64,000 nucleotides of DNA from Octopus vulgaris. Its lineage: Eukaryota. The stretch is taken from assembly GCA_951406725.2 (NCBI GenBank), contig OX597827.1:14818001-14882000 (forward strand), read 5' to 3'. Shown in pieces: positions 4,430 to 60,793 of the stretch (position 1 is the stretch's first letter; every line of letters starts with the position of its first letter). A program made the translations under genes and the position numbers. The notes below the pieces were generated by a model that had not been told where the DNA came from, searched no databases, and saw nothing but the letters and a program-made list of their open reading frames with translations.

Positions 4430-4537
4430 TTCTGGGAGCTTTATTGCTGTAGTTGAGGCTTTCCATTCATTTTGTGGTTCAAGGACAAAGTAAAACTGAT
4501 TTGATGATGACTCTGTTATGGCAGCTGGAGTGTTAGT
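4430..4537 (-). CDS. Internal coding exon D (TNTPAAITESSSNQFYFVLEPQNEWKASTTAIKLPE)
   Basis: Acceptor gtatttttcag|, donor GAA|gtaagt; 108 nt, phase 0-0; shares the motif; absent from the ORF track. Confidence 0.88.
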
Positions 4538-5748
4538 CTGAAAAATACATGGAAGTTACATGAAATTGCAATGGAATACAGCAAAGTCTTTGGGTTTGGG
4601 TTTGGCTAGTGATATAATTAACAGATTAAAGCTGAACGACACAGCTTGAAACCATTCATTTTCGTGTAGCATCTCAGTTGTTGAAAGTGACTAGTGGAAA
4701 ATTATCCTTTAAGTGAAATAGCCTTAAGTGTTTTGGAGGGGAGTAGAAATTGCTTCAGATACCAAATATCAGATTAAATTAAAGACTTTAGAATAAAGCA
4801 ATTTTAAAAAAATAATAATTAGTAGTATTCTATGCCAAATAACTTAGTCATAATTTTTACCAAGATTAGTAGGGTACAAACAGATACAGGACCAAATTTA
4901 GACTAATAAATCTAATTTCAAAAATTAATTCTAGCTAGCAACAAAAATAGGAATTATATTGGGCAATTAATATAATTATTATTTATTTTTTAAAAATCTT
5001 TATATATTAGAGACTTGACAAAGATGCTGATATTTACAGCAATCATGAATCAGAAAGGGCAAAATAAATTTTGTCTCTGACAAAATTTCAAAATTTTTCA
5101 TTTACATCATGTATACCGTTTATGCTAAGGTAGAAATAAAAAAAAAAAAAAGAAGTAAATAGATAAAATACTCCGTAAAATAATAAAACTATATCTGGTA
5201 TCGGTTGATTATCTTAAATTTTACAGACTGAAATAATATTCTGGACGACTAGAAGAAGAAGCATTCCGCAGAAGTCGGAATTTTCTTCAAACTGAAATAT
5301 TAGTTGTTGATGACTGATACAACAAAAGGCAGAGCCTCGTTGTGGTTGTTTGTTTTCCATTTAATTGTTACAACCATTATCAGCAGCTGGCATGTATTCC
5401 AGACCAAACTGCTGCTACGCTTCAAGGATTACTCTGCTGTTACTTCCACTCTGCACTGTTTCCCATTCAAGCTGCAGCAGCTGCTGCTGCTCTTGCTGCT
5501 GTTGTTGCTGCTGCTGCTGCCACTGCTGTTGATTCTGATAATAACCAAGGCAGCTACTACTGTCACACAGAAATGAAGGGATAGCTACTGCACAACAGAG
5601 AGAAGAAATAGCAATTTTACTAGCTTGTTCGATATCTTTTATTTCACGGTATCATTTGTTCAATTATCAACATCAACTGAATTCAATGATTTATCCATCA
5701 AGTTAAATTTTTTCAAATAAATTCTTGGTTTTTGCCAACCAAATATTA

Positions 5749-6008
5749 TAAATATATATATAAATACATAAATGTATACATATATATACATATATACATA
5801 TATGTATGTATATATATATATATATGTATGTATGTGTATATATATATAATATATATATATATATATATATATATATGTATATGTATATATATATATATAT
5901 ATATATATATATATATATATATATATATATATATATATATATATATATATATATATATATATATATATATATATATATATATATGTATATATATATGTAT
6001 GTATGTAT
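5749..6008. repeat. (TA)n-rich microsatellite
   Basis: Direct inspection. Confidence 0.95.
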
Positions 6009-6409
6009 TTTTTATCATGAAATGAGATGCATGACAAGCAAAGACTGTGACAAGATTATAGATAATCCATAGAAACATCTAAATGTTTTCTGGAAACTAC
6101 ATCATTTTCATTCTGTAGAAATATCTGCAAAGAAAGTTTGCTAATTCAGCTGTCGAAAAATAAATGAATGTTTCTGTAGACACAAACATAATGATCTGAA
6201 AATGAATTTCTCTGGAATATTTCCGAACAGCTTCATCTCAAAATTCTACACTGAAAAATATCCCTGCAAATCAAGATAGAGAGAGAGAGAGAGAAAAAAA
6301 CAGCTTCCATAGCTTTTATAATAGAATTATTGAATAAATATACTTTTAACCCACATCTGATAGCGCTTATTTGTTTGGGATAGAATTTTAGAGAGAAAGC
6401 AGGACTTAC

Positions 6410-6541
6410 CGGTTTAGGTGGTGGTGGTTTGAATGTGGTGGTTGAAGCTTTCCACTCATTTTGTGGTTCAAGGACAAAGTAAAACTGACTTGACGCGTCA
6501 GCCATAAGAGGGTTTCCGAATATGTCTGCAGAGCTGTAATT
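6410..6541 (-). CDS. Internal coding exon C (NYSSADIFGNPLMADASSQFYFVLEPQNEWKASTTTFKPPPPKP)
   Basis: Acceptor ttcttttccattccttag|, donor CCG|gtaagt; 132 nt, phase 0-0; shares the FYFVLEPQNEWKASTT motif. Confidence 0.9.
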
Positions 6542-7317
6542 CTAAGGAATGGAAAAGAAATGAGGGTGTTTTAGAGGAGCAAGATGGACAAAGAATTATG
6601 GTTTTATATCATAGCAGAAACACACAAACATAGGACATATACACACACATATCATTATATATATATATATATATATACATACACACAGAATTGTTTATGT
6701 ATAGAAATAAATATATATATGTATAAATATATATATATATACATATGTATTATATATATGTGTGTATATATATATATACATGTATGTATCTATACATATA
6801 TATTTATACATACATACATTTATATATATATATATATATTATAACTGTTTTGATCTATACATGTAAATCCCAATTAATGTATTGAGTGCCCTTCTCTCCT
6901 TTTTCTACTCACTCATATATATATATATATATATATATATACACACACACACATATATATATATAAATATATGCATATATATGCATATATAAATATATAC
7001 ATATATACACAAGAAAATTTGCGTGTGTATATATACATATATATATATAGAGAGAGAGAGAGATGTGTATGAATACACACACACACATATACATGCAGAG
7101 AGATAGATAGATAGATAGATAGATAGATAGATAGATAGATAGATAGATAGATAGATAGATAGATAGATAGATAGATAGATGGATAGATAGATAGAATACA
7201 GATGTGGAGAAAACATACATGGTAAACAACAATCAGTGCATAGAAAGCAATCAATGTAAACAGAACACAATAAAACAAATCACAGCCATGAATAACAGAG
7301 TAACAATAAGCAAGTGC

Positions 7318-57800: not shown

Positions 57801-58279
57801 AATATTTTAATATGTTTTTAATAATAACCAGTCACATCTTACTTCTTAGTAACAGTATAGATAAATGGGAAGTTGCAGAGCTGAAAAACTTGCTTAATGT
57901 TGTTAATCTAGAATGGAATTTGTCAGTTATAACAGGATTAAAGCTTGCACCTTGAGAGGGCAAGAGTCATAACGGGGCTTAAAAAATGTTGTAAAAGATT
58001 AAAAATCTCTACATATCAGTTATGGCTGAATGGGTAGGAAATTTGCTTTGCAACAATGGAATTTTCAGGTTCAATCACACTGCACTGCACCTTGAACAAG
58101 TGATTTCTACCAGCGCTTCAAGTATGAAATATACTTGTATTTATCCAACATCATGACTTTTAATGCATACCAGGTTAACAGTGTGGTCGAGAAGTTTACT
58201 TTGCAACTTTGTGTTCAGTCCCATTGTGAAACATTATAAGCAAGTGTCTCCTATGAGGGCCACAGATTTATCAAAGCCT

Positions 58280-58575
58280 TCATCATCATCATCATCATCA
58301 TCATCGTTTAACGTCCGTTTTCCGCACTGGCACGGGTTGGACGGTTCGACCGGAGTCTGGGAAGCCAGGGGCTGCACCAGGCACCAGTCTGATCTGGCAA
58401 AGTTTCTACAGCTGGATGCCCTTCCTAACGCCAACCACTCCGTGAGTGTAGTGGGTGCTTTTTACATGCCACCTGCACAGGTTCCAGGGGGATCCGGCAT
58501 CGGCCACGATTGGTTGGAGCTTTTAACGTGCCACCGGCACGGAAACCAGCCAAGGCAGCGCTGGCAATGGCCTTG
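58280..58575 (-). mobile_element. RTE 3' UTR/tail fragment
   Basis: (cat)n plus RTE tail. Confidence 0.82.
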
Positions 58576-59187
58576 TGATTGAAATTTGGTAGCCAGAAAA
58601 CATATGGAAACTCATCAGAGTGACCTTTGGCAAACTTGATCCATCACCCTGTTTGACACCATTCTTTGGCGCCTGATGGTCTTTAACCAAAGTTCACACT
58701 GTCGCAAGCATCCAGGGTAAGTATTCTGTCTGATGATAATGTCCTCCCTTCTAACCCTCTTCCCACCAGTCTCTAAGGGGTATTGTATATAACTTTTCCA
58801 CCTCTGACTAAGTCATGTAGATAAAAAGAAATTTTTTAAGACTAATTATTAAGTAATTATGCTTGAGATAACAGGTTTGTTCTTTTGTTTTTCTAGAAAA
58901 CAAGGTCTGACAGTTGACCTTGCGTGTAATTATTTCCTCTTCCCTCCACTGATGCTTATCCAAAGAAAAGGCTGTAAAATTGAGCCCATTACAGCTTGGC
59001 ACCAGTGTCATAGCTGGAGTGATTGTCAGACTGTAAAAAACAGAAAAACAAAGACACTGCGAAGTATCTTAGCTAGTCTTCTACCAGTTCCACTAATCTA
59101 CTCACCGGGACCTAAACTGGTAATTATTTTTTCAACCCTGACAGGATGAACAGCAAAACTGACCTTGATAGGATTTGAACTCACAGT

Positions 59188-59229
59188 ACAGAACCACACA
59201 AAGCAAACAGCTGAGTTATTCATTATTAT
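59188..59229. repeat. Left arm of a perfect 42-bp inverted repeat (partner 61562-61603)
   Basis: acagaaccacacaaagcaaacagctgagttattcattattat is the exact reverse complement of 61562-61603. Confidence 0.92.
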
Positions 59230-60637
59230 TTCTAATAATCACATAACAAATATGAGGCATTTCATCCAGCATTACCATTACATTGCCATTTTTTTGTTAC
59301 ACCAAAATCCTTCTCCTATATAAGGTATGTTTTACTGACCAATATCAAAATCTACATACTTTACTGACATACAAGCATTGATTTTTTTTTTACCCTTTCA
59401 CCTGTAACTGCTACATTTGCTGTATACCAATGTCTCATCTAGGGCTTGGCGATTATGGCCTAAACACCCTTCTTAAATCAACCACTATATAGAATGTTTT
59501 GGATGGATTCTTTCTCATGGCAAAAGCACTACAGCAGTTGTTTTGGTCCTGGCAGGACTCGTAAAAACCTCTCTCAAATCCAACGTTGATGCAGCTCAAT
59601 TCAATTTACCAACTACTTACAGTAGAATACTGGGTGCTTTTTGCATGGCACCAACACTAGAGGGATCACCTTGTAACTTGCAAGGCAAAAGAGAGTCCCT
59701 TTGGCTAAAGCAGTAGAAGTTAATATTTGATGGAAGAAACAAGTTTATTGCTAGGAAACGATACTAACTGAGAAAGCAACAGATGGAAAATTGTTGGGGG
59801 AGAGGATAATAATGAATAAGACAAGGGAAAGGAGACGGGGTCACAGTTATGGCCAATAGTTTGGAACATAGGTTTGTGAATTAGAATTTTATATTAAATG
59901 CCCGAAGTTATATTAAACGTCCAGCAATTTGGTCCAGAACTATATTTTTGATTTTGCCTATTTTTTCTTCTAGATATTGAGCCATTGGATCAGTTATTAG
60001 GTAAGTATATCTCTATCCTGAATTGAATCGTACTTGGGCATAACAATTTTAATTTTTTTTTAAATGTTCCAAACTTTTGGCTATCACTGTAATACGAAAG
60101 AGAGGAAGGACAAAGAAGTAAGCAAGCTGAGGTGGATTGAGTAGGGAGGATCCAAAGCTCTCCAAAATATTTATGTATTATCATCCTACATCATGTTTCT
60201 ATGCTTGCATGGGTAGAACAATTCCTTAGGATCTGAGACCGTTTTCCTTGCACTTGGACAGGCTTATTGTTAGGGGAGTTTGCAGAAGGTGGGAGAAAAA
60301 TAGCAGTGTTAGACAAGGGAGTTATAGGGACAAAGGGAAAAAATAGTGTCAGAGGGTATACTGAGAAAGAGTTAGAGACTACAGATAAGAACAATGGGGT
60401 GGGTAAAGTACACGTAATGCTACCCATGTTAAACATGGATGGGTAAAGTGGTGTGTGAAGGAAAGACGATGAGGAGGAAAAGCCAGAGCATCCCTTTTTC
60501 TTGACATGTGTGTGTGTGTGTGTGTGTCTGTGTGTAATACCACAATTAAGGTCCTCAAAGACCGCATGTAGCCTTAAGGATCACAAATTCCAATATTATT
60601 GCAGAAATGCCCATGTAAGAATAAAATTAGTATTTAC

Positions 60638-60793
60638 AGGAGCAGCTCTCTGGAATTCCACTGGTGTAGTAGAAGCTATCCATTCATTTTGTGGTTCTAA
60701 CACAAAGTAGAACTGACTGGAAGAATCTATCAACTGTGATTCTGTATTTCTTCTTTCATTTAAATTTCTTGTTATGGCAGCTGAATTGCGGGT
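60638..60793 (-). CDS. Internal coding exon A of an unidentified minus-strand gene (TRNSAAITRNLNERRNTESQLIDSSSQFYFVLEPQNEWIASTTPVEFQRAAP)
   Basis: T-run + ACAG acceptor, donor CCT|gtaaat; 156 nt, phase 0-0, open frame; paralogous to three other exons with mostly synonymous differences. Confidence 0.88.

Follow-up and report, generated by a model that had tools for sequence, protein, structure and literature searches.

What is encoded by four similar short exons that lie scattered over a long stretch of octopus DNA, and how are they used? The stretch, hereafter called the window, consists of 64,000 nucleotides (nt) of contig OX597827.1 of Octopus vulgaris (C14:14818001-14882000; exon positions are window-numbered unless marked C14). 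In its six-frame translation a repeat motif occurs four times, every copy on the minus strand. The sizes, positions, AG/GT bounds and phase (0-0) given for the four exons in a first-pass annotation, made from the sequence alone, were all confirmed: exon A (60793-60638, 156 nt, 52 codons), exon B (53422-53267, 156 nt, 52 codons), exon C (6541-6410, 132 nt, 44 codons) and exon D (4537-4430, 108 nt, 36 codons) have polypyrimidine-AG acceptors and GT donors. They carry copies three, four, five and six of eight, and exon D is annotated as a cassette exon. The repeat is real, under selection and spliced in tandem within an annotated protocadherin. The four-exon picture itself stood, but four further copies outside the window had been overlooked, as had three non-repeat coding exons in the 47-kb gap between B and C.

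All four window exons are part of a single protocadherin gene of the octopus, approximately 147 kb long and on the minus strand. Exon B gave 45 matches in the genome, eight of them at E <= 5.4e-5, and as these eight all lie on the minus strand in C14:14.807-14.952 Mb, the repeat copies are not chance matches. The first copy ends the 835-codon frame (C14:14953838-14951334, minus strand) of a large exon of 2.4 kb, 70 kb upstream of the window, which also encodes a signal peptide, six cadherin domains and a membrane helix (Pfam: PF00028 in six stretches, E 2.3e-80, and PF08266, E 8.3e-9). Copies 2-8 are found on seven small phase-0 exons, namely E1 (C14:14887780-14887634), A, B, C, D, F (C14:14809409-14809302) and G (C14:14807348-14807199), all on the minus strand. 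The non-repeat exons, also on the minus strand, were found by mapping of cluster proteins: X1 (49019-48939, 27 codons), X2 (41514-41476, 13 codons) and a micro-exon (19835-19809, 27 nt, 9 codons). Together the 11 exons translate to CAI9732511.1 (1162 amino acids), the final residue excepted.

The search with exon B also retrieved protocadherin beta-15 isoform X1 of Octopus bimaculoides, likewise of 1162 amino acids and with eight copies in series. The protein cluster has 19 members, at least 15 of which are from O. bimaculoides, O. sinensis, O. vulgaris and Argonauta hians, and orthologues of CAI9732511.1 are present in O. bimaculoides, O. sinensis and Argonauta. The protein is thus already in the databases as automatic gene models, in which the protocadherin names are best-hit labels. 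The first-pass annotation had not recognised the family, and had proposed that the domains of the host transcript be identified; these are a signal peptide, six cadherin repeats, a membrane helix and a disordered repeat tail, and automatic models with all eight copies exist. The first cadherin repeat is of the Cadherin_2 type, the membrane helix is single and the ectodomain lies on one large exon, so that by every feature testable here the gene is a coleoid protocadherin. The gene models differ at their C-terminus, some closing with Q or I and others stopping right after exon G, which implies that there are alternative one-codon last exons downstream of C14:14807199; such a terminal exon was not located, and C14:14781648 is a candidate acceptor for the Ile ending.

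The peptide is under purifying selection, as had been proposed from exons A and B, for which the count of 30 consecutive identical residues with 16 synonymous codon differences was reproduced exactly. Over the 20-codon core of the four window exons the pooled proportions of synonymous (pS) and nonsynonymous (pN) differences were 0.676 and 0.042, and over the 28 core pairs (20 codons) of all eight copies 0.639 and 0.080. The values for the whole of exon A against exon B (pS 0.72, pN 0.158) are fairer, because the core was picked for its conservation. Between O. vulgaris and Argonauta all eight cores are identical (19/19 residues each), and the tail is better kept (425/441 residues) than the ectodomain (595/668, Fisher p 7.6e-6), whereas in three control paralogue pairs it was no better kept (125/136 vs 616/669, 92/165 vs 486/677 and 224/263 vs 616/681).

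Transcript contigs were used to follow the junctions. The large exon was contained in 20 of the 24 listed runs, and contigs from four runs, belonging to four studies, were taken; such contigs drop rare variants. In all four, positions 53422 and 60638 were joined, with 156 letters on either side of the joint; the 7215 nt skipped between B and A have GT..AG ends. Cover of exon C was confined to 6410-6542 with the flanks uncovered, X2, the micro-exon and C were joined, and C was joined to D, again in all four runs; the continuation D-F-G was present in two of them, among the contigs listed. Upstream of A the contigs were unbroken for 973-2987 nt, past the acceptor of E1, a length which fits one upstream exon. 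Mutually exclusive use, which had been considered from the symmetry of the exons, is thereby excluded as the main mode, since neighbouring repeat exons are joined in tandem.

A copy number set by splicing, also suggested earlier, has modest support. Four of 13 full-length gene models, across three species, lack exon D, whereas a contig joining C directly to F was found in none of the four runs; since rare variants are dropped from contigs, this does not amount to absence, and the case for skipping of D comes from gene models. Five of the 13 models lack the micro-exon; among them is that of Argonauta, with other residues in its place. Two of 15 gene models are truncated, and one from O. vulgaris terminates after reading through the donor of X2.

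In this type I membrane protein the repeats follow the membrane helix on its C-terminal side, and so they face the cytosol. In the AlphaFold model the ectodomain is folded, with six beta-sandwich regions, helices span residues 3-16 and 685-716, and the whole tail (residues 715-1162) has a predicted local confidence (pLDDT) below 50. One repeat modelled alone had no secondary structure, and a beta-hairpin considered for the single repeat was dropped on this ground. A disordered cytoplasmic tail with repeated cores has the anatomy of a linear-motif array.

No known family accounts for the repeat in the searches made. Pfam gave no credible family for the repeat exons (DUF6579, at E 0.075, was rejected as far below the Pfam cut-off), a sequence search of the PDB with a family profile and an eight-repeat profile gave no match at E <= 10, and the tail and exon B found no usable match in the ESM Atlas. 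A profile search of 1.84 billion representatives, in which squid relatives could be hidden inside 50% clusters, gave eight matches, seven of them octopus protocadherins or their fragments; the eighth, an unnamed repeat protein, was judged a chance match. Four named cuttlefish tails, one of them mis-cut, did not score for the motif. Among short-motif patterns, the extended LC3-interacting region (LIR), WIRS, RVxF, W-acidic, KxTQT, NPxY, YEEI and a PDZ end had no match in the tail, of which WIRS and the PP1 motif RVxF are features of vertebrate protocadherin tails, and the end of exon C is a proline-rich stretch matching a class I SH3 pattern. The octopus motif list reproduced in Table S2 of PMC6339937 contains no such tail motif. 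By titles and the beginnings of abstracts no paper on the repeat was found; Albertin 2015 and Wang and Ragsdale 2017 may mention the motif or gene. The first-pass annotation had held that inclusion of all four exons in an already annotated protein would remove the novelty, and tandem inclusion in such a protein is largely what was found, yet for the repeat itself there is neither a family entry nor a description that we found. The eight-copy tail, the origin of the repeat and the family-wide motif therefore appear to be undescribed, beside the automatic annotation of the protein.

For eight conserved copies in a disordered cytoplasmic tail, a multivalent docking region, one of the earlier suggestions, is the best reading, and we give a probability of roughly 0.7 to the eight repeats being a docking strip for one intracellular partner. 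Each core would be a short linear motif binding as an added beta-strand; the cores are spaced 34-93 residues apart, and eight copies at such distances would raise avidity. The first candidate partner is filamin, whose class A immunoglobulin (Ig) repeats would link the protocadherin to cortical actin. Filamin is bound by GPIb-alpha through FRSSLFLWVRP (PMC5484675), by FilGAP through FSTFGELTVEP, in which alternating residues face the groove and whose binding requires valency (PMC2654154), and by migfilin through VASSVFITLAP, of which the closing proline is conserved (PMC4554727). A proline inside the site disfavours binding (PMC10164935). From the first three of these ligands a pattern was abstracted with S/T at 0, hydrophobic residues at +2/+4/+6 and Pro at +8. 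In its relaxed form it fits 7/8 repeats and 1/120 paralogue tails, against 0.1 per shuffled tail. The octopus genome encodes a filamin with class A-like repeats; one filamin repeat, at C15:14250807-14251100 (minus strand), is contained entirely in a single exon. The likeness to the CD-face ligands of filamin, which also include integrin beta tails, lies in the serine, the alternating hydrophobic residues, the proline at +8, the disordered receptor tail and the importance of valency; eight copies per chain set the octopus tail apart.

Several points weigh against these readings. The strict filamin pattern, with a hydrophobic residue at -2, fits none of the eight repeats: GPIb-alpha, FilGAP and migfilin are hydrophobic at that position, which is Ser, Thr or Ala here. 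At position 0 exon D has Asn, and the pattern does not account for the invariant N-x-W-x-x-S half of the core, an extra compared with the filamin ligands. The pattern was chosen after the motif had been seen, and the eight repeats count as one origin for the fit. Differences specific to single copies are also fixed between the genera, so the copies could be non-interchangeable. The runs behind the contigs are only guessed to be RNA, none being recorded as such, and the contigs carry no information on tissue or level. Docking and filamin binding are both proposals from sequence. Filamin as the partner is a tentative lead, rather unlikely to hold; slightly less likely still is the fuller scenario in which a new filamin-binding strand arose in the family tail motif and was multiplied eightfold by duplication of the large exon's end, giving a high-avidity, possibly force-sensitive link to the actin cortex, with valency tuned by skipping of D.

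Among other explanations, the repeats may be trafficking signals (tyrosine-based sorting or Atg8/LC3-type) to endosomes or lysosomes. YxxPhi and a relaxed [WFY]xx[ILV] core are found in all eight copies, and the VCD of vertebrate protocadherins, which has the same position at the cytoplasmic end of the large exon, controls endolysosomal traffic (PMC4660814, PMC7339444). Such short patterns are, however, common by chance, the extended LIR is matched by 0/8 and the immunoreceptor tyrosine-based inhibitory motif (ITIM) by 1/8 copies, and no Pfam model of vertebrate protocadherin cytoplasmic regions was found on the tail at E <= 10. It is rare for a sorting motif to depend on eight copies or on 19 invariant residues, and we consider this explanation unlikely. 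Comparably unlikely is an association of the repeats with one another, or with the single copies in paralogous tails, by which protocadherins would cluster in cis through stacking of aromatic beta-strands. The core is strongly hydrophobic and aromatic within a polar disordered tail, and the vertebrate VCD mediates cytoplasmic association among protocadherins (PMC4660814), but the full-length model of the eight-copy protein has no strand pairing in the tail; this is weak evidence, because the alignment there is shallow.

A cassette for isoform diversity, either by mutually exclusive choice or by constant exons shared by several ectodomain exons in the vertebrate alpha/gamma style, has very little left in its favour. 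The exons are symmetric, of phase 0 and paralogous, and D is skipped in models of three species and the micro-exon in models of two Octopus species. The tandem joining and the unbroken contigs upstream of A described above speak against it, as does a single ectodomain in all of the at least 15 of 19 cluster members, with room for rare forms; the exon B search gave no other ectodomain with a repeat tail (two matches among five candidates), and cephalopods have no shared final exons according to PMC9068888. A secreted peptide precursor cut at dibasic sites, the alternative raised in the first-pass annotation from the RR before NTESQ in A and B (the tail has seven dibasic pairs), is excluded for practical purposes by the cytoplasmic topology, because the repeats lie behind the membrane helix; moreover, in C, D and F the core is not preceded by a dibasic site.

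The repeat has relatives throughout the family. The genome has 117 matches to a paralogue's version of the segment. The majority lie on C14 in frames some 800 codons long, and 116 Cadherin_2 matches concentrate on C14 likewise. In a set of 122 tails (the best 120 of 3491 matches and a few more, orthologues being redundant) one copy of the motif was found in 46 and none in 75 at 10 bits, and only the eight-copy protein has eight. The single copies in the 46 of 121 other tails are degenerate, with a family consensus of roughly S-x-x-Q-F-Y-P-x-x-E-x-x-x-[ED]-W-x-T-S-T. Of 40 distinct paralogue rows, 68% have Pro eight residues before the Trp (W-8); where the paralogues carry this stretch, the eight-copy gene has F-Y-F-V-L-E-P, a replacement that counts towards the filamin proposal, and its gene-specific core is S-x-F-x-F-x-L-x-P.

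The exon boundaries suggest how the copies arose. In the large exon, A, B, C and G of the eight-copy gene, the distance from the conserved Trp to the phase-0 GT donor is 15 codons, and 15 of 20 paralogous stretches have the same spacing. Exons E1, A and B start 37 codons before the Trp, and a Gln|Thr boundary at that distance was found in paralogues at 13 of 17 loci, themselves found by pattern among 28; the Gln codon is CAG in 5 of the 17. Exon G begins with TNNP, as do the paralogues. From these sequence comparisons we infer that the small exons are duplicates of the 3' end of the large exon. The last 52 or so codons of the large exon would have been duplicated; the copied stretch would have retained its original donor, 15 codons past the Trp, and recruited the AG of the Gln codon at the ancestral Gln|Thr boundary as acceptor, and the small exons would then have been duplicated further. 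No further decayed motif exons were found in 262 kb.

Exon X1 has another source. It comes from the 3' end, in antisense, of an abundant interspersed repeat that has the anatomy of a short interspersed element (SINE) and whose A-rich tail supplies the polypyrimidine tract and the AG. This repeat has 55 blastn matches at E <= 1e-6 on both strands of the 262 kb, itself included, and a tRNA-like head by eye which was not called by ARAGORN. In Argonauta 24/27 residues of X1 are kept. Contigs break inside X1, as is to be expected of repeat sequence. Two X1-like matches in intron 1, considered as decayed exon copies, were rejected as copies of the interspersed repeat.

Other tail motifs were observed in the family. 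YEE[ILV] occurs in 43 of 103 paralogue tails of at least 100 amino acids, often after a Trp, and is absent from the eight-copy gene, and several paralogue tails have a C-terminal motif of the KPLPAVP type. Both resemble ligands of Src-family SH2 and SH3 domains. Neither is in the motif table of PMC6339937. In PCDHD2 of the cuttlefish Acanthosepion pharaonis a different tail motif has multiplied independently, with four copies of DY[LV]EP in residues 1031-1157; octopus paralogue fragments have single YLEPV endings. Motif-bearing protocadherin ends with in-frame stops inside tandem arrays (C14:79187000-79187600 and 80368750-80369300) are likely pseudogene fragments.

With other coleoid protocadherins of the chromosome 14 arrays (PMC9068888, PMC6339937, PMC9795677), the gene shares the large exon with signal peptide, six cadherin repeats, transmembrane helix and proximal tail. 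The family further has head-to-tail neighbours and one degenerate motif copy before the phase-0 donor. Unlike them, the gene has a tail of approximately 450 amino acids, eight copies on seven extra exons besides the large exon's end, a new hydrophobic core and no YEE[ILV]. In vertebrate clustered protocadherins, too, the large exon ends in a conserved cytoplasmic motif and small tail exons lie downstream (PMC4660814, PMC7339444), but the VCD is single-copy and has no detectable sequence match here, and unlike the vertebrate constant exons the octopus downstream exons serve one gene and are motif copies. The tandem duplicated, mutually exclusive exons of Dscam1 and arthropod N-cadherin resemble the octopus exons in being symmetric and paralogous and in belonging to genes for neural adhesion, whereas those of the octopus are included together and are cytoplasmic.

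Elsewhere in the window, positions 28000-36000 have a strong purine skew (GC skew up to 0.84) from GA/AGAT/TGG microsatellite tracts, which are intronic simple repeats, and Rfam gave no match within the window. Downstream of the gene, C14:14750986-14748806 (minus strand) is a 727-codon frame with the look, by eye only, of a LINE-type reverse transcriptase.

The gene shows two routes of exon birth, duplication of the 3' end of a large exon with an acceptor at a codon boundary and exonisation of an interspersed repeat, and the products of both have been kept between Octopus and Argonauta. According to PMC6339937, vertebrate tail motifs were not found in cephalopod protocadherins and their intracellular interactions are unexplored. 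The locus defines a tail motif of the whole family together with a natural eight-copy version of high avidity, a ready bait for the partner. Should the filamin proposal hold, cephalopod protocadherins would have a first named intracellular effector, as far as our literature search shows.

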